DNA of 32,000 bases, taken from the NCBI GenBank assembly GCA_963931495.1, contig OZ007020.1, forward strand, positions 750,001-782,000. The letters are read 5' to 3'. This stretch comes from an uncultured Alphaproteobacteria bacterium. GTDB lineage: Bacteria > Pseudomonadota > Alphaproteobacteria > Rs-D84. The position numbers were made by a program, and so were the translations under genes. Every line of letters begins with the position of its first letter. Within the stretch, counting starts at the first letter, position 1. A model generated the notes under the pieces. It did no database searches and was not told the DNA's origin. It was given only the letters and a program-made list of their open reading frames with translations. Shown piece after piece: positions 1,350 to 30,468 of this stretch.

Positions 1350-2339
1350 ATGAATCAAAAGTTTGTGGATTTTATGCATAAATACGCCGGAATGCGGTTG
1401 GCCGTCGCGGTCAGTGGTGGCGTGGATTCTGTGTGTTTACTGTGCTGGATGGCCCAGATTGGTGCAAATGTGATATGCCTGCATGTAAATCACGGTTTGC
1501 GTGCCAATGCAGAAATTGAAACAGAATATGTACGCCATTTGTGCCATAAACTGGGCGTGGAATGCAAAATTTTTTATTGGACGGGGGATAAACCGTCAAC
1601 TGGACTGGAAGCGGCCGCCCGCGATGCACGATATAAATTCATGACTGATTTTTGCCATGAAAATAATATTGATGCACTGGTTACCGCACACCAGGCAGAC
1701 GATCAAATTGAAACATTTTTTATGAATCTGGGGCGCGGCAGTGGATTGTACGGCTTGGCGGCAATGCGCCCGGTTACATATCGCGATGGGGTAAAAATTC
1801 TGCGTCCGTTATTAAATGTACCGCGCACAGAACTGAAAAAATTCTGCGATGATAATGGTATTAAATATTTTACGGACGAAATGAACAGCGATCCGCATTA
1901 TACACGTGTTCGTATTCGCCAAAATCGTCATTTGGTTGGCGAAAAACTGGGAATCAGCGATGCGCGTATATTGTTGGCGATACAAAATCTGGGGCGGGTA
2001 CGCGATGCAATTGATGCGCGTGTCGCAGAAATGGTGGCGTCTGTTACAAATAACCGGCGTGCGATGTTTGTTGATTCTTTTCTGTTTGACCAATCACCAG
2101 ATATTAGATTAAAGTTGCTGGGGACATTGGTTCAAAAAATTGGGGGGAATGAATATCAACCACGCTTGAATTCGTTGTCAAATGCACTAGATAACTTACA
2201 ACACGATTGTAAATTTACGCTGGGGCATTGTACATTACGACGTCTGGGCGAAAAGATTTTAATCGTTCCCGAAGGTTCAAAAACAAGTTTCAGGACAAGA
2301 TATGGAAAAACAAAATCAGCAAGCACAAATAAAAAATAA
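1350..2339 (+). CDS. tilS: tRNA(Ile)-lysidine synthase
   Basis: The PP-loop motif SGGVDS lies near the N-terminus, followed by LHVNHGLR and HQADDQIET blocks. The conserved tilS-ftsH adjacency is present. Confidence 0.85.
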   Translation: MNQKFVDFMHKYAGMRLAVAVSGGVDSVCLLCWMAQIGANVICLHVNHGLRANAEIETEYVRHLCHKLGVECKIFYWTGDKPSTGLEAAARDARYKFMTDFCHENNIDALVTAHQADDQIETFFMNLGRGSGLYGLAAMRPVTYRDGVKILRPLLNVPRTELKKFCDDNGIKYFTDEMNSDPHYTRVRIRQNRHLVGEKLGISDARILLAIQNLGRVRDAIDARVAEMVASVTNNRRAMFVDSFLFDQSPDIRLKLLGTLVQKIGGNEYQPRLNSLSNALDNLQHDCKFTLGHCTLRRLGEKILIVPEGSKTSFRTRYGKTKSASTNKK

Positions 2340-4218
2340 AAAAATAAATCGGCCACGTCGTCGTGGTGATGGTTCGTTATTCTTGACAATATTTGCGGTA
2401 CTGTTTATCGCGATGATGGCGCGTTCTTTTATCGGTGGCACATCGGCACCGCAAGTAATGCCAAATGGTCAACCAACGCCCCCGCCGGTTGAATTAACAT
2501 TTTCCGATGTACTGCGTCGTGCCCCAGAAATTAAAACTATGGAAATTCGTGGCAACGATGCATCTGGTACATTAAATGATGGCACACCGTATACTGCAAC
2601 AATAACATATGACCCGGAATTGTTAAGTAAAATTGCAGAAAACGGTGCAACGGTATCAATTAATACGTCAAAAACATGGGTTGATTACCTGGGGACATGG
2701 GTGCCTATTTTAATGGGACTGTTCTTTATATGGTGGTTGTTCCGTGGGTTAAAGGGCGGCGCCGGCGGTATCAGCCGCAGTCTGGCCCAGCAAAATCCAA
2801 CAAAAATAACAACCGGTAAAACAAAAACAACGTTCAAGGATGTTGCCGGAATTGATTCAGAAAAACAAGAATTAATGGAAATTGTGGATTTTCTGAAAAA
2901 TAAAGAAAAATTCAAAGACGTTGGTGCACGTGTACCACGTGGAATATTGCTGTCTGGCGAACCAGGAACAGGAAAAACACTGTTGGCACGCGCCATTGCC
3001 GGCGAAGCAAACGTACCATTTTTTGCCGCATCTGGCAGTGATTTTTCCGGTATTATTGTCGGATTGGGGGTTGCAAAAATCAAAGAAATATTTGATATGG
3101 CAAAGCGTCATGCACCGTGCATTCTGTTCATTGATGAAATTGATGCTATTGGTCAGCGACGCAGTACGCATTCATATAACGACCAAGATCGTGAACAAAC
3201 ACTGAATCAATTACTGATTGAAATGGACGGTTTTTCAAATGACACGGGCATAATCGTCATTGGTGCAACAAATCGTGCAGATATGCTGGATCCGGCATTG
3301 TTGCGTCCCGGCCGTTTTGATCGCCAGGTATATATTGAATTACCTGATTTGGCGGGACGGCGCGAAATTTTGGACCTGTATGCGACCAAGGTCAAAATTG
3401 CCCCGGATGTTAACCTGCAAGATTTGGCACGTGGAACGACCGGATTTTCTGGGGCGGATTTGGAAAACCTGTTGAACGAAGCGGCGTTGCTGGCGGTGCG
3501 TAACAATCGTACAGAAATTGCACCCGCAGATGTTGAAGAAGCACGCGATAAAATACTGATGGGGCCACGCAAAGTTCGCAAAATGCGCCCCGAAGATATT
3601 AAACTGACCGCATATCACGAAGCCGGTCATGCATTCGTCAGTGTTATGTATGCGGATGTAACCGACCCAATACACAAGGCGACAATTATTCCGCGTGGAC
3701 GGGCGCTGGGGATGGTTCAACACTTGCCAATTGATGATAAAGTTTCAATGACAATCGCCGAAGTGCGCGCAAATCTGGCCGTCGCACTGGCCGGGCGCAG
3801 CGCCGAAGAAATTTTCTTTGGTTCAGACAAAATTACCACTGGCGCCGAAAGCGATATTGCAATGGCAACGCGATTGGCACGATATTCAATTACAACCGCG
3901 GGGCTGTCACGTAAAATTGGATTGGCGGCAATAAACCAGGTTAATAATTTCGGCAATCGTACAGCGTTGGAAAATGCGTCTGAAAAAACCGCAGAAATGG
4001 TGGATGCCGAAGTGCGGGAATGGCTGGATGCGGCACATGATGATGCGACAAAACTGTTATCAAAAAATAAAGACACTGTTCGCAAATTGGCCGAAGAATT
4101 GTTGGCACGCGAAACACTGACAGGTGCAGAAATCAAAGAAATTGTTATGGGCGCATCAAAAAAAACAACATCACAGAAAAAATCAGATAAAGCACGCAAA
4201 AATGCAAAATCAAAATAA
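2302..4218 (+). CDS. ftsH: ATP-dependent zinc metalloprotease FtsH
   Basis: The product has an N-terminal TM segment, Walker A GEPGTGKT, Walker B ILFIDEIDA, the SRH region, and the zinc motif HEAGH. Confidence 0.97.
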   Translation: MEKQNQQAQIKNKKINRPRRRGDGSLFLTIFAVLFIAMMARSFIGGTSAPQVMPNGQPTPPPVELTFSDVLRRAPEIKTMEIRGNDASGTLNDGTPYTATITYDPELLSKIAENGATVSINTSKTWVDYLGTWVPILMGLFFIWWLFRGLKGGAGGISRSLAQQNPTKITTGKTKTTFKDVAGIDSEKQELMEIVDFLKNKEKFKDVGARVPRGILLSGEPGTGKTLLARAIAGEANVPFFAASGSDFSGIIVGLGVAKIKEIFDMAKRHAPCILFIDEIDAIGQRRSTHSYNDQDREQTLNQLLIEMDGFSNDTGIIVIGATNRADMLDPALLRPGRFDRQVYIELPDLAGRREILDLYATKVKIAPDVNLQDLARGTTGFSGADLENLLNEAALLAVRNNRTEIAPADVEEARDKILMGPRKVRKMRPEDIKLTAYHEAGHAFVSVMYADVTDPIHKATIIPRGRALGMVQHLPIDDKVSMTIAEVRANLAVALAGRSAEEIFFGSDKITTGAESDIAMATRLARYSITTAGLSRKIGLAAINQVNNFGNRTALENASEKTAEMVDAEVREWLDAAHDDATKLLSKNKDTVRKLAEELLARETLTGAEIKEIVMGASKKTTSQKKSDKARKNAKSK

Positions 4219-4897: not shown

Positions 4898-5539
4898 TTA
4901 ATTTTGATAATACGCGGCCCCGGTACACGACCAAGATCCGGTACTGTCACTGCCGGTCAGACCGGTAACATAGCATGATGTGATTGATTCTGCCCCAGAA
5001 CCAGATGTTGTTCCGCCACCACTGCATTGGGTACAGCCGGTGTAATTGCCAATCATTTGCATCGCTGGTGGCGTTCCCCACCAACCTTTGGCACAACGAT
5101 ATGAAGATTTTTTGGAACATGTGCATGTTGACGTATTGCATGTCGCATCAGTAACATATTCGTATCCTGTGGCGGGCGATGTCACCGAATCAAGACAATT
5201 ATCACATGTGCCATCACAATCATCACCGCCACCGATATCACCACCCTGTTTTACACAGTCGTAATATGTCCCCGTATTGGCACACGGTGATACCAACTGT
5301 ACTGTTTTCCGTGTTCGGGTGTATCCGCTGTTGCATGTGGTACATGATTCAATTTTGTTATTCGTGCTGCCGCCCCAACAACTGACTGTTTTTGTTTTGC
5401 AATTCAAAACACGTACCATCGGCGTTGTTGTATCCCCTGTTTGACAGGCCTGGTCTGAACATGCCATACCCAACGCCCACGCATTTGATGTCAGCGCACC
5501 CCCGCAAATAATTGTTAAAAATATTGTGAACTTTTTCAT
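4898..5539 (-). CDS. secreted cysteine-rich protein, paralog A (function unknown)
   Basis: The signal peptide is MKKFTIFLTIICGGALTSNAWA. The mature part contains about 19 Cys. It aligns by motif with the upstream gene: TC.SGY.R, DDCDGTCD.C, TGY.Y...ATCNT..C.C, WGTP, GCT.C, SIT.CY and GSDS.GSW. Confidence 0.75.
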   Translation of the reverse strand: MKKFTIFLTIICGGALTSNAWALGMACSDQACQTGDTTTPMVRVLNCKTKTVSCWGGSTNNKIESCTTCNSGYTRTRKTVQLVSPCANTGTYYDCVKQGGDIGGGDDCDGTCDNCLDSVTSPATGYEYVTDATCNTSTCTCSKKSSYRCAKGWWGTPPAMQMIGNYTGCTQCSGGGTTSGSGAESITSCYVTGLTGSDSTGSWSCTGAAYYQN

Positions 5540-5560
5540 ATTCTGATTTTTTCCCCCCCA

Positions 5561-6325
5561 TCAATAGAAACAATTTCCGCCTTCAATCACCCACGACCCG
5601 GAACTGTCACTGCCAACGGTTCCATTGGGTAAATAGCATGCAGTAATTGACGTACTGCCCGCCATACAGCGCGCGGTATCAGGGGCGCACCGTGTACACC
5701 CAGATGTCAGTGATACATTCGGGGTTCCCCAATAATTTGGGGCACACTGTGTGTGCCTGTCTTTGGTGCATTCACATAAATCCGTGTTACATGTTGCAAC
5801 GGTGCGGTATTGATATCCTGTATTGTATGTTTGCCACGGTGTACTGGTACAATCGTCGCACGTGCCATCACAGTCATCTGGCGCGCCTGGATATTTGCAA
5901 TCGGTATATGAAACCGTGTTTGTACATTCGCCATTCAGTTTTATTGTTCGTGTTACGCGTTCGTAACCCGATTTGCACGTATTACATGTCGCAACCGCCG
6001 CACTGGTTGTTGCCAGATTTTGGCCATAGCATGTCATGCTGGACGCCATGCAATTACGCAATATATTATCAGGCACAACTTCGTCAGAACAGCCCCGGGG
6101 TTGGCATACCTGGCCTGTTGTACCACCGCCACCAACACCACCGCTGCCACCGCCGGGATTTGTGGGGTCGGTGCCACTGCCACCTTCGTTGCCGCCAACG
6201 TCACCACCAGATGAACTGATTGCATATGCAGTATCAATATGCGCCACAGTGCATAAAAGTGCGGTAATGCATACCAATGAAATTAATGCACGCGCCGAAT
6301 CTAAACCTCCGTTTAGATTCGGCAA
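5561..6325 (-). CDS. secreted cysteine-rich protein, paralog B (function unknown); start codon uncertain
   Basis: A hydrophobic signal-like segment ends in TAYA. A Gly-rich linker follows, then about 20 Cys with the same motif order as paralog A. The track start TTG 6325 lies inside the conserved upstream element. An alternative in-frame TTG lies at 6277. Confidence 0.7.
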   Translation of the reverse strand: MPNLNGGLDSARALISLVCITALLCTVAHIDTAYAISSSGGDVGGNEGGSGTDPTNPGGGSGGVGGGGTTGQVCQPRGCSDEVVPDNILRNCMASSMTCYGQNLATTSAAVATCNTCKSGYERVTRTIKLNGECTNTVSYTDCKYPGAPDDCDGTCDDCTSTPWQTYNTGYQYRTVATCNTDLCECTKDRHTQCAPNYWGTPNVSLTSGCTRCAPDTARCMAGSTSITACYLPNGTVGSDSSGSWVIEGGNCFY

Positions 6326-6422
6326 AATACGAGAGATAAAAAATGCAGAAATCTGGGATTTTTACAAAAATAAAAACCGCCGCTGTAAACGGAGGTTTAG
6401 ATTCGGCATAAATATTACACCC
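6294..6422 (-). repeat. conserved ~129-bp element, copy 1, 5' of the Cys-rich operon (candidate regulatory switch or structured leader)
   Basis: 6294-6314 (gccgaatctaaacctccgttt) is the perfect reverse complement of 6387-6407. A local 13-bp palindrome spans 6294-6306 and 6311-6323. The direct repeat gtttagattcggc occurs at 6311 and 6395. By hand alignment the element shows about 16 differences in ~129 positions against 18865-18992. Confidence 0.8.
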
Positions 6423-6459
6423 AAAATAGTAATATATTTATTGCATTCGCGTCAATAAA

Positions 6460-17658: not shown

Positions 17659-18273
17659 ATGAAACGTTATTTATTAATCACAATATGTACAATCATTTTA
17701 CCAACACTGGCATATGCAGAGGATAGTTATAATGCGCGCGATACGTATGTTGGGGTGCGTGTACACAAAAACGACAATATTGCATTTATGATGGAACCAG
17801 ATAACGGCGATGGTGTGACATTGCGCGATGACGGATTTGGTGTCGGATTAACAATCGGAAACAGACTGACCCAGAACGTAAAAATTGAATTTGAAACCGC
17901 ATATACAAATGGCAAAGATTCTGATGTCGGAAACGATTTTGAATTTCATGTATGGTCAAATATGTTGAACATGTATGTTTATCAACAATTTGGTGGCGCA
18001 GTTGAACCATATATTGGGTTCGGTATCGGGGTATCTGGATTGTGGGGTAAATCACATGGGCTGTACGATTTATCCGATGCAACCGCAGATTTGTCGTGGT
18101 CATTAATGCTGGGGGTGAACTTTGCATTAAATGACTATGTTGACCTGAACCTGGGACTGAAATACCAGAACTATGGCGATATGGATATGACGAATGACGC
18201 CGGATATCATAACTATACCGAAATTGACGCCACAGAAATATATATTGGTGCCGCGTACAAGTTCGGTTTATGA
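17659..18273 (+). CDS. small outer-membrane beta-barrel protein (Omp25/31- or OmpW-like)
   Basis: The signal peptide ends in LAYA. The sequence has alternating beta-strand character and ends IGAAYKFGL. Confidence 0.6.
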   Translation: MKRYLLITICTIILPTLAYAEDSYNARDTYVGVRVHKNDNIAFMMEPDNGDGVTLRDDGFGVGLTIGNRLTQNVKIEFETAYTNGKDSDVGNDFEFHVWSNMLNMYVYQQFGGAVEPYIGFGIGVSGLWGKSHGLYDLSDATADLSWSLMLGVNFALNDYVDLNLGLKYQNYGDMDMTNDAGYHNYTEIDATEIYIGAAYKFGL

Positions 18274-18855
18274 ACTCATATCATAATTACACTGTTGTAC
18301 CCATTCACCACTGCCGGTGCTGTCTGAAAATTCGGTACCAACCGCGATATAACAGCTGGTAATAAAAGCATTTCTACCATGGATGCTGGTGGTTGTTTCA
18401 CCGTTTGGCCCCGCCGGACATTGTTGACATGATGGTCTGGAACCATAATATCCCGCGTCACAGTATGCGAGGACCACACTCCCCCTGCACGGTTCGCAAC
18501 AAAGCAATGAATATTGTGTACAATTACCGTTTGAATCAGTACACACTTGACACAATTGTCCGGGTGGCGGGGTTATTGCTGTTCCGCCACCATCATCGCC
18601 ATCGTCACCATCGTCGCCGCCATCACCCGAACCTTCGCCACCACCCTGGTCCACATCTTTACAATACGTTGAGCATAATTGTACACTGGGCGCACAACAA
18701 ACAGTGCCTGATGCAACCATACTGATACACGCGACTTGACCGGCTGGGCAATTCTGGCCAGATTCTGCACCGCCCAGTGCATAAGACGCGTTTGGTGTAA
18801 TCAAATTAACAAATACACAACCGACAAATAATAATTTATTAAAATATTTCCACAC
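18268..18855 (-). CDS. secreted cysteine-rich protein, paralog C (function unknown)
   Basis: The GTG start gives the signal peptide MWKYFNKLLFVGCVFVNLITPNASYA. The mature part has about 17 Cys and a G/D linker. The C-terminal module CDAGYYG...CQQCP...ITSCY...SDSTGSGEW matches the C-termini of paralogs A and B. Confidence 0.7.
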   Translation of the reverse strand: MWKYFNKLLFVGCVFVNLITPNASYALGGAESGQNCPAGQVACISMVASGTVCCAPSVQLCSTYCKDVDQGGGEGSGDGGDDGDDGDDGGGTAITPPPGQLCQVCTDSNGNCTQYSLLCCEPCRGSVVLAYCDAGYYGSRPSCQQCPAGPNGETTTSIHGRNAFITSCYIAVGTEFSDSTGSGEWVQQCNYDMSS

Positions 18856-18866
18856 AACAGTTGCAT

Positions 18867-18992
18867 CTGAATCTAAACCACGTTTAGATTAGGCAAAAAA
18901 CGGGATATAAAAAATGCAGAATTCTGGGATTTTTACAAAAATAAAAACCGCCATTATAAACGGTGGTTTAGATTAGGCATAATATCACACCC
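18867..18992 (-). repeat. conserved ~129-bp element, copy 2, 5' of Cys-rich paralog C
   Basis: The architecture matches 6294-6422. A local palindrome spans 18870-18878 and 18882-18890. The direct repeat gtttagattaggc occurs at 18882 and 18966, again 84 bp apart. The inner inverted repeat matches 16 of 17 positions. The element ends 11 nt before the GTG start. Confidence 0.8.
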
Positions 18993-19040
18993 TGCGTGGC
19001 AATATTTTATCAATTTTTTCAACCAGAATCAATAATAATA

Positions 19041-29104: not shown

Positions 29105-29746
29105 TCAGCCTTGAATAATCTCGTTAACACGAAAATGAAAGACAGTGCACGGATCACCCCCGTTTTCAAGATAATCATGCAAAGCCTGAATGTCTATGTT
29201 TGATAACATACGCGGTTCATATGTTATATCCATAAACATTGTTCCACGTGATTTTTGCGGAATAACGCCGAAATTATTCGGGCCATTCCATGTCGTTAAT
29301 TCATAATTTACAATCCAATACGTACTGTTAACCGGACGCGTAACCCGATCAATAACACGCACAGTACGGAATGCCCTGTTCCCCGCCATTTCTTGGATTG
29401 TGCGCGCTTCGCCATTCAGCCAACTGTCAAATACCGACCGGGATGACATACGCCCCAGTGCACCATTTGCCCCCATACGACGCGCGATATTTTCAACATC
29501 TGGGGCAACATAAAAGTATTCAGTAACATATTTGCGAACCAGCAAATCCAGAAATTCCATTTCACCCATTTCTGTCGGTGTTTCGGGTGTCCCAGGACGA
29601 TGTTCTGACAAATTATTCGGTTGAAAAAAGTATGGTATAATACGCTGGGACGACGTCGCATCATATATTGCCCCAGCCAAATATATCGCCCCACCAGACA
29701 TGGCGACCAATATCAATCCTAATAAAAACAATAATATTTTTTTCAT
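29105..29746 (-). CDS. bitopic membrane protein, VirB8-like (second of a tandem pair)
   Basis: An N-terminal TM segment is followed by SQRIIPYFF, which parallels SQRIDPFIV in the upstream paralog. The periplasmic domain has a VirB8/NTF2-like block order (..KYVTEYFYV.., YWIVNYELTTW, ..DITYEP..). The ATGA overlap links it to the upstream gene. Confidence 0.4.
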   Translation of the reverse strand: MKKILLFLLGLILVAMSGGAIYLAGAIYDATSSQRIIPYFFQPNNLSEHRPGTPETPTEMGEMEFLDLLVRKYVTEYFYVAPDVENIARRMGANGALGRMSSRSVFDSWLNGEARTIQEMAGNRAFRTVRVIDRVTRPVNSTYWIVNYELTTWNGPNNFGVIPQKSRGTMFMDITYEPRMLSNIDIQALHDYLENGGDPCTVFHFRVNEIIQG

Positions 29747-30468
29747 TCGCTTATCTTGTACGCATTAAAATCCGCCACATAATATCCCATCGTTTGCGGA
29801 TATTTTTCCGTGTTACGTGCAATCTTGGCAAACGCAATCACAGATATTTCACCCGCCAAATTTGATTTTATCGTTGCCGTAACCCGCCATGTTCCACCAA
29901 CATCAGACACATTCCCCACCGGTTCCATATAGATTTGATTTTTATCAACAACCCATTCTTCGCCCAGCGCAACACGTTCTTGATACAGCGGCACAACATC
30001 GTATATAAAACGTGAAAACAATTCTTCCCCAGACACACAATACAGATTACATGTTTTATCAGAAAAAGAATATGGACTGGCGGTGCCACAGTCAACATCA
30101 CGTTCGCATGTTTGCCACATTGCGTCATTCACCTGGGCATCCCCAGATACAGAAAACCAATTAGCGGTAAAATTCCCCAGCACAGATTCTTGTAATGCCA
30201 TCTTGGCCGAATATTCAATCGGGCCATTGCCATGAGAATGCCCAACAACCGTCCATTGACCAGTTAATTTATCTATCTCTACAATAAATGGGTCAATCCG
30301 CTGGCTGCGTACCGCCCAGATTAAAATACCACATAAAAATATTACCAACAAAAACGTCACGCACGACGCAATGCCCATAAATCTGGACAACGCCACAGAC
30401 TTTCCCGCCGGGAATGCGGGTGTGTTAAAATCGCTTGGATAATCCAATGGCATCCCCCCCTGTGACAT
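29743..30468 (-). CDS. bitopic membrane protein, VirB8-like (first of a tandem pair)
   Basis: A ~30-aa cytoplasmic N-terminus is followed by one TM segment. Then comes IDPFIVEIDKLTGQWTVV, which matches the VirB8 hallmark EPYV(I/V)RVD..TG....VV. The C-terminal end is P.TMGYYVADFNAYK (compare NPLGFQVTSYR). The length of 241 aa is typical of VirB8. Confidence 0.55.
   Translation of the reverse strand: MSQGGMPLDYPSDFNTPAFPAGKSVALSRFMGIASCVTFLLVIFLCGILIWAVRSQRIDPFIVEIDKLTGQWTVVGHSHGNGPIEYSAKMALQESVLGNFTANWFSVSGDAQVNDAMWQTCERDVDCGTASPYSFSDKTCNLYCVSGEELFSRFIYDVVPLYQERVALGEEWVVDKNQIYMEPVGNVSDVGGTWRVTATIKSNLAGEISVIAFAKIARNTEKYPQTMGYYVADFNAYKISE

Follow-up and report, generated by a model that had tools for sequence, protein, structure and literature searches.

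The 32,000-nt stretch of DNA analyzed here (the window) is part of a 958,617-bp metagenomic contig of an uncultured bacterium of the order Rs-D84 (Alphaproteobacteria). It carries two copies of a repeat-rich element, copy 1 and copy 2 (18867-18992), for both of which the gene-sense strand is the minus strand of the window. A comparative analysis showed that the element is one member of a leader family common to many cysteine-rich secreted-protein genes in gut Rs-D84 Alphaproteobacteria. In the reading that we favor, with a probability of about 0.55, it is a transcribed structured 5' leader of approximately 125 nt, which hides the start region of the gene and ends transcription early in some lineages. 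The anatomy of the element, its conservation, the position of its promoter, the covariation between its parts, and its predicted folds were established by this comparison.

The relatives of the element were collected by way of a homologous locus, L010, which shares only its right half. A 20-mer common to both window copies and L010, CCCAGAWTTCTGCATTTTTT (W = A or T), was used as the pattern in a scan of the Genome Taxonomy Database (GTDB) with one genome per species. The scan returned 43 loci, approximately 28 of which were true relatives, all of them in metagenome-assembled genomes (MAGs) of gut Alphaproteobacteria. One roe-deer MAG contained approximately 17 copies, a second MAG eight, and “Ca. 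Enterousia intestinigallinarum” two; three further leaders, all in the normal orientation, were found on human-gut metagenome contigs. A covariance model built from 31 aligned leaders, whose alignment was nearly gap-free, recovered diverged copies in other loci, and in the window it found the two known copies and no third one. In total, the family comprises at least 35 related leaders in at least nine genomes of uncultured “Candidatus Enterousia”-like members of the order Rs-D84; the homologues are annotated as Alphaproteobacteria MAGs, and the related loci come from “Candidatus Enterousia” and its relatives. Rs-D84 are uncultured gut bacteria of human and animal hosts with genomes of approximately 0.75-1.0 Mb and an unknown lifestyle (PMC12306168). 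The leader had no match in Rfam at the gathering score and only chance-level matches at a permissive E of up to 5, and the literature search found no paper linking Rs-D84 with cysteine-rich proteins. An exact 24-mer of the left part of the core had no match in GTDB genomes. An orientation-neutral metagenome scan anchored on the promoter of group A, the largest group of leaders, also gave no match, though its pattern fits 16 known loci. Short-read contigs often begin at or inside the leader (L003 1-5, L004 1-3, L012 1-10, and L014 1-20), which fits a repeated sequence or strain differences breaking assemblies. A rearrangement at the left edge of copy 2, considered because contigs L003 and L004 end there, was rejected, since co-existing strains differing by a T just upstream explain these ends.

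In the gene-sense direction, both window copies have the same order of parts: a promoter, a first arm GCC(G/T)AATCTAAAC leading into a terminator-like hairpin with T5AT5, a 26-nt core, a pyrimidine tract, and a second arm, which opens at the start codon and folds into a hairpin of 13 bp. Across the family, a promoter of the sigma-70 type (TTGCAA or TTGACG, N17-18, TAAAAT) was found 5' of the leader in 27 of the 31 sequences, compared with 10% of shuffled sequences. Its distance to the first arm is fixed: group A has 26 nt, window copy 2 has 25 nt, and most of group B has 14 nt. No sense-strand promoter was detected within the element in any of the 31 leaders. In several group A promoters (L042 4181-4260 and others), the -10 box is flanked by an 8-nt inverted repeat (CTGTACGC ... 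GCGTACAG), the sequence of which differs by copy with some of the symmetry kept; this repeat could be an operator or a structure of the 5' end.

The first palindromic unit starts with GCCGAA. Its right side is formed by a terminator stem followed by U5AU5 in the window lineage (both copies) and in all group B copies, and the scanner found the gene-sense hairpin with T5AT5, already recognized in the preliminary description, in both window copies. The predicted energy of these terminator-type 5' hairpins is -15 to -17 kcal/mol, and that of the 5' part of the copy 1 leader is -16.8 kcal/mol. The first unit of group A is a plain hairpin without a U tract. Together with the AT before it, the first arm also gives the ATG of an upstream open reading frame (ORF) in groups W and B, whereas group A lacks this ATG. 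Leader-peptide attenuation was considered and set aside as a side possibility only, as group A does not have the upstream ORF, the length of the ORF ranges from 8 to 33 codons, and in group B almost no leader precedes it.

The 20 bases at the 3' side of the core (CCCAGAWTTCTGCATTTTTT) are identical in all 31 aligned leaders, and the six bases preceding them vary. This identity extends across genomes whose FtsH, AckA, and TilS proteins share 79, 81, and 65% identity, respectively, and no copies without the 20-mer pattern were found in approximately 337 kb of the loci. A check by eye for sigma-54, IHF, and CsrA-type motifs in the core and loops found none conserved. At L068 7745-7871 (+), the core of an apparently decaying copy is the perfect palindrome AAAATCCCAGAAATTTCTGGGATTTT, a sequence that suggests that the usual core is a degenerate third hairpin at the center of the element.

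The second unit starts at (A/G/T)TG. In group A and its relatives, the second arm opens an ORF (MPNLNVGL...) with ATG, GTG, or TTG as the codon in 18 of 18 cases. In group B, the gene starts further 3': the triplet at the second arm is TCG in four of nine cases, the frame meets TAA at once, and the true start lies 30-50 nt beyond the second arm with its own ribosome-binding site. Thus, the conservation of the second hairpin does not depend on its being coding. For copy 1, the orthologue P0001 is called from the codon that matches the TTG start, and the second hairpin has a predicted energy of -21.7 kcal/mol (z -6.5). In copy 2, the center of the second hairpin (18879-18881) is GTG in the window strain versus GGTG in other strains (L013 10016-10019), which corresponds to a 1-nt deletion that is the same in all six assemblies of the window strain. 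The loss closes the hairpin frame and leaves a GTG at 18855 as the start codon; the other strains keep the longer ORF that opens at the second arm of copy 2 (P0022, MPNLNGGLDSDATVV...).

The pairing of the two units provided further evidence. The sole consensus helix predicted by RNAalifold for the 31 leaders joins the centers of the two units and covaries fully, with pair counts of GC:18/AU:12/UA:1 and AU:18/CG:12, and the four center pairs, by which the centers are reverse complements of each other, are kept in 31 of 31 leaders. Five center states were observed, all complementary, when two diverged copies beyond the 31 leaders are included: TCCG/CGGA, ACCG/CGGT, GACG/CGTC, ACAG/CTGT, and CAAC/GTTG. 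In L024, the start region retains a 16-bp pairing with a quite different sequence. The full inverted repeat (31 pairs) is paired at 73%, compared with 29-44% when it is slid, and the two local hairpins are paired at 74%; the local hairpins score as well as the long-range repeat because the second unit is approximately the reverse complement of the first. Partition-function folding gave the long-range helix a probability of at least 0.7 in approximately 20 of the 31 leaders, and the start codon was mostly paired across the folded set (mean probability of being unpaired, approximately 0.25). The gene-sense RNAs of copies 1 and 2 were predicted to fold with -55.1 and -44.7 kcal/mol, respectively (z = -6.9 and -5.4 against shuffles).

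A comparison of the two window copies, which are 90% identical across 102 nt, allowed most of the preliminary description to be verified. All repeats named there occur in both copies, at more than chance level. The long inverted repeat of copy 1 is present and perfect over 21-22 nt. The 13-mer GTTTAGATT(C/A)GGC occurs six times in the window, three times in each copy, where 1.1 matches would be expected, and none of 100 shuffles reached six. Its two direct occurrences per copy, 84 nt apart in both, were borne out, although the coordinates previously given for copy 2 were one base off. The compensatory change between the copies (cTcc/ggAg versus cAcc/g-Tg) is real, but copy 2 is missing one base of the right-hand center. 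The change of c to a, described as concerted within each copy, holds in the window but is not universal, since in copy 2 of strain L013 the first arm reads GCCTAATC and the second GCCGAATC. The central palindrome CAGAATTCTG occurs in copy 2; copy 1 has CAGAAATCTG instead.

Based on these data, we propose the following model. The transcript would carry two related palindromic units of 30 nt, in each of which a 4-nt center separates two 13-nt arms; the units are placed 84 nt apart around a near-invariant A/U-rich core. Since the centers are mutually reverse-complementary, two folds are possible, namely two local hairpins or one long imperfect hairpin of the first unit with the second; as the start codon opens the second unit, the region of translation start is buried in both folds. 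In the window lineage and one other, the first unit appears to have been turned into an intrinsic terminator (stem and U5AU5), at which most transcripts from the promoter would stop after approximately 50-60 nt unless this is prevented. The genes would then be off by default, by occlusion of the start region everywhere and by premature termination where the terminator exists, and a putative trans-acting factor that recognizes either the hairpins or the invariant core would lift this block throughout the gene family. We infer the transcription of the leader, the function of the terminator, and the existence of such a factor from the features described above. Among the hypotheses of the preliminary description, the one that came closest to the evidence was that of a structured 5' leader with a local 13-bp hairpin and a long-range helix competing beside the start codon: the promoter lies 5' of the whole element in 27 of 31 leaders, the second arm is at the start codon, and the centers covary. 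In a more speculative reading, the leader would control a variation system that spans the whole gene family of a gut symbiont with a reduced genome: either terminated leader RNAs would act in trans and select the cysteine-rich proteins to be produced, or the two lox-like sites would be real and recombine, by inversion or by cassette exchange of the variable genes; we regard this as improbable. If the trans version were true, abundant terminated leader RNAs would carry the complement of the start-region hairpin of every sibling gene.

Several observations weigh against the structured leader. Its transcript starts, termination, and effects on translation are predictions from sequence. Group A, although the largest group, has no U tract; therefore, termination cannot be the common mechanism. 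An inverted repeat acting as DNA explains every pairing equally well, and a count of G:U against A:C (80 against 30 cells, but 11 against 12 columns) does not separate RNA from DNA pairing. The use of the exact 20-mer as search bait inflates the apparent invariance of the core, and four diverged copies have altered cores. The upstream ORF is conserved neither in length nor in presence. Finally, the 84-nt spacing is kept despite a very different sequence between the first unit and the core in the different groups, a pattern that suits helical phasing of DNA better than an RNA linker.

The spacing is also the strongest point for a constraint at the DNA level, since 84 bp correspond to eight helical turns, and it keeps alive the hypothesis of phased operators. 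According to it, a regulator, dimeric or tetrameric, would occupy the two 30-bp palindromes, which lie on one face of the helix, and these would form, with the 84-bp spacer rich in A/T tracts, a small repression loop or a roadblock 3' of the promoter. In 30 of 32 members, the arms are 84 bp apart (8.0 turns at 10.5 bp), and in the remaining two 83 and 85 bp, even though the intervening sequence diverges. In addition, the arms are near-uniform within a genome and differ between genomes, as would be the case with a co-evolving factor, and the spacer contains many phased runs of A and T. However, the first palindrome has unevenly conserved half-sites: its right half is replaced by terminator sequence in the window lineage and group B and varies freely in group A (TTAT, TCTG, CCTT, and others), where the left half is invariant. 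Both palindromes lie 3' of the promoter, no regulator gene is linked within the window, and operators give no reason for the reverse-complementary centers in 31 of 31 leaders. We consider phased operators unlikely.

The same arrangement of a 13-nt arm, a 4-nt asymmetric center, and a 13-nt arm recalls lox- or hix-like sites in inverted orientation, and inversion between such sites could toggle the genes. The centers are always identical in inverted orientation, as crossover regions require; the terminator of the window lineage in its present orientation would be dismantled by inversion; and the leader switch of cwpV provides a precedent (PMC2784873). However, all 31 aligned leaders and six independent assemblies of copy 2 (assembled consensus only) show one and the same orientation of the core with respect to promoter and gene. 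Three of the four leaders added by model-based alignment agree, and the fourth, L070, with an altered core, has the same orientation by eye only. With approximately 40 loci, an inverted majority state could escape notice only if it occurred in fewer than approximately 7% of them. Moreover, the repeats are broken in several copies (window copy 2, L015, and L051a), and inversion of copy 1 would remove its only usable in-frame start codon. A distance of 84 bp between centers and a 4-nt center are short for tyrosine recombinases and awkward for serine invertases. The domain search found no recombinase domain within the 32-kb window, which agrees with the statement of the preliminary description that no recombinase gene lies there. 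The internal outward promoter on which that description based its invertible switch, TTTACA-N17-TATAAA, exists as a sequence in copy 2. It did not pass standard promoter criteria: the promoter scanner did not report it because the second hexamer lacks the final T, and a promoter at that position occurs in 0 of 31 leaders by standard criteria and in 7 of 31 by relaxed ones. The conserved promoter lies outside the repeats. The invertible promoter is therefore not supported, and a cwpV-like switch, the only form of the inversion idea that fits, has a low probability; we consider inversion in any form very unlikely.

Signs of exchange around the leader were observed in several strains. Copy 2 of strain L013 carries the right half of window copy 1. 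In human-gut strains, L060 (1-1500) has the same promoter and leader as L059 (reverse, 2101-3800) and L068, but different genes follow; the identity stops inside the second hairpin after GCCGAA and returns at a common 3' terminator, CCCCAATTTATTTGGGG, as in a cassette-like replacement. These exchanges show that the leader is also a recombination junction. It can be supposed that the 5' module is kept mainly as a recombination anchor, with the promoter, leader, and first codons homogenized by gene conversion to supply homology for exchanging cysteine-rich cassettes, and with the hairpins as by-products of an ancestral palindrome duplication. The clustering of the leaders by genome, which the downstream proteins do not follow, is consistent with this. 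However, gene conversion within genomes cannot account for a core that is the same in genomes whose housekeeping proteins are 65-81% identical; in one case, the gene behind the leader encodes a glycosyltransferase instead; and the covarying centers, fixed spacing, and start-codon constraint are left unexplained. Thus, an anchor as the main role of the module appears quite unlikely.

A miniature mobile element of the Correia or MITE (miniature inverted-repeat transposable element) kind, incidentally carrying promoter and terminator signals, would account for the size of approximately 115 nt, the terminal inverted repeats of 21-30 nt, the multiple copies, and the long hairpin formed if transcribed (compare Correia elements, PMC2649163). 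In contrast to such an element, all copies occupy the same place in the same orientation, between a homologous promoter and the gene start, and nearly always precede the cysteine-rich family. Homology is not confined to the inverted repeats but reaches the -35 box and enters the coding sequence, and neither empty sites nor target duplications nor intragenic copies were observed. This explanation is already largely refuted, and we consider it extremely improbable.

The genes behind the leaders also support the favored reading. Approximately 28 of the 34 downstream ORFs examined encode proteins with at least 6% cysteine, and the leader-adjacent proteins of the window contain 8-9%. The window cysteine-rich proteins had no Pfam match even at E up to 10; the AlphaFold model of one of them was all-beta with a pLDDT of 76, and a fold search found no match in the Protein Data Bank (PDB). 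On the basis of these two negative results, they were considered an orphan family. The protein encoded by 4898-5539 and the homologues P0001-P0021 share motifs such as C-x-x-C-x-S-G-Y-T-R and C-A-x-G-Y-Y-G ... C-x-x-C-P.

The gene at 4898-5539 (-) is a third family member in the window, with an ordinary signal peptide and without a leader of its own; it probably forms an operon with 5561-6325. A diverged leader at L070 2138-2260 (+) (core CCCCGATTTCTGCGG, spacing 83, with a terminator) lies before a glycosyltransferase family 92 gene rather than a cysteine-rich one. Elsewhere in the window, 29743-30468 (-) encodes a VirB8-like protein (Pfam E 3e-6), which hints at a type IV secretion component in a reduced genome.

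A second, unrelated structured leader of approximately 160-215 nt precedes homologous cysteine-rich genes in other loci, from related genomes, and is absent from the window; it also occurs in some genomes carrying the double-palindrome leader. It contains a GGGGUGU..ACCC stem, a GCGUC..GACG stem with a variable insert, and a long-range stem, GGU(UG/CA)GAGG..CCUC(CA/UG)ACC, with four compensatory pairs, which is overlapped by a CCACC..GGUGG-U6 terminator. Its layout appears riboswitch-like, and it had no match in Rfam. The presence of a second terminator leader on homologous genes makes attenuation or leader-based control a recurrent theme for this gene family. The positions of all features are listed in Table 1.

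Table 1. Positions of the leader elements, their parts, and the adjacent genes in the window, with the loci of the second leader
Feature	Position	Strand	Sequence or remark
Copy 1, inverted repeat	6294-6315 vs 6386-6407		perfect, 21-22 nt
Copy 1, 13-mer GTTTAGATT(C/A)GGC	direct 6311-6323 and 6395-6407; inverted 6294-6306(-)
Copy 1, promoter-like site	6426..6455	-	TTGACG-N18-TACTAT; 18 nt 5' of first arm; homologues in family
Copy 1, first arm (DR1)	6395..6410	-	GCCGAATCTAAAC, with AT before it, giving ATG
Copy 1, upstream ORF			opened by first-arm ATG; 15 codons, MPNLNLRLQRRFLFL, stop
Copy 1, center and terminator-like stem	6366..6394	-	CTCC, stem (CCGTTTACAGCGGCGG), T5AT5
Copy 1, core	6338..6363	-	AAAAATCCCAGATTTCTGCATTTTTT; weak palindrome about CAGATTTCTG
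Copy 1, start codon and second hairpin	6294..6325	-	TTG 6325-6323; arm GCCGAATCTAAAC 6323-6311, center GGAG 6310-6307, arm GTTTAGATTCGGC 6306-6294
Two cysteine-rich secreted-protein genes behind copy 1	4898..6325	-	5561-6325 (254 aa, 22 Cys) and 4898-5539 (213 aa, 20 Cys), 21 nt apart
Copy 2, 13-mer GTTTAGATT(C/A)GGC	direct 18882-18894 and 18966-18978; inverted 18866-18878(-)		inverted match with 2 mismatches
Copy 2, promoter-like site	19004..19032	-	TTGATT-N17-TAAAAT; TG before second hexamer
Copy 2, first arm	18966..18980	-	GCCTAATCTAAAC, with AT before it; upstream ORF MPNLNHRL, stop
Copy 2, center and terminator-like stem	18937..18965	-	CACC, stem (ACCGTTTATAATGGCGGT), T5AT5
Copy 2, core	18909..18934	-	AAAAATCCCAGAATTCTGCATTTTTT
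Copy 2, second hairpin	18866..18894	-	arm GCCTAATCTAAAC, center GTG, arm GTTTAGATTCAGA
Copy 2, outward hexamer pair	18932..18960	+	TTTACA-N17-TATAAA; reverse complement of terminator loop and of TGTAAA after T tract
Cysteine-rich secreted-protein gene behind copy 2	18268..18855	-	195 aa, 18 Cys; GTG start in window strain
Second leader, other loci	L007 9790-9990; L008 9800-9990; L069 9755-9975 and 10858-; L070 9775-9975; L015 7888-7902(-); L056 4097-4111

One Rs-D84 bacterium has 17 or more genes for orphan cysteine-rich secreted proteins that evolve fast, all with one shared leader, and understanding this leader would show how the organism controls display or secretion toward its host or neighbors. 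The leader also represents a compact, testable motif outside Rfam, defined by the 84-nt geometry, the covarying centers, and the invariant core. The second, riboswitch-like leader suggests that this gene family is a good place to seek new RNA-based regulation.

Comparison with known systems demonstrated partial similarity to several of them. In variable surface-protein families of the Mycoplasma vsp/vlp type, variation arises by homopolymer tracts or site-specific inversion. The family studied here resembles them in its many divergent genes in a small genome, its near-identical promoter, leader, and N-terminal region, and the signs of recombination there; it differs in that the double-palindrome leader has no variable tract, the T run being 6 or 7 by substitution and not by slippage. 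The Correia repeat-enclosed elements of Neisseria, which form hairpins cleavable by RNase III when co-transcribed and can influence the genes next to them (PMC2649163), are of similar size and also have terminal inverted repeats about a conserved core. However, they are dispersed in many contexts and orientations, whereas the leader is fixed in both and includes the start codon.

In cwpV of Clostridioides difficile, 195 bp are inverted by RecV, and both orientations have been observed; the promoter lies 5' of the repeats, a terminator is formed in one orientation, and the product is a variable surface protein (PMC2784873). The leader family shares with cwpV an upstream promoter before inverted repeats that flank a leader segment; a terminator in the present orientation occurs in the window lineage and group B, though not in group A. 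Unlike cwpV, the segment here is 84 bp long, one orientation was found in approximately 40 loci, and no recombinase lies within the window. Invertons of the fimS and Bacteroides type share the flanking inverted repeats, but their internal promoter and second orientation were not found here.

Intrinsic-terminator attenuators and riboswitch leaders likewise lie between promoter and start codon; shared with them are a sense-direction stem with a U tract, local and long-range helices that exclude each other, and occlusion of the start region. In contrast to them, the present family has no Rfam match and no recognizable ligand or tRNA sensor, its largest subgroup is without a terminator, and its arms are fixed 84 nt apart; in addition, the long-range partner is transcribed after the terminator and so cannot serve as a classical antiterminator. 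Among alternatives to the terminator, only a 5-bp UAAAC/GUUUA pairing and the upstream ORF overlap it, and the strong competitor lies 3' of it. In kind, the element is a structured 5' leader or attenuator, while in detail it has no close described relative. Its distinguishing features are a double palindrome with complementary centers, an 84-nt geometry that is fixed, a second hairpin with the start codon at its base, and a copy number that can reach 17 or more per genome of approximately 1 Mb.
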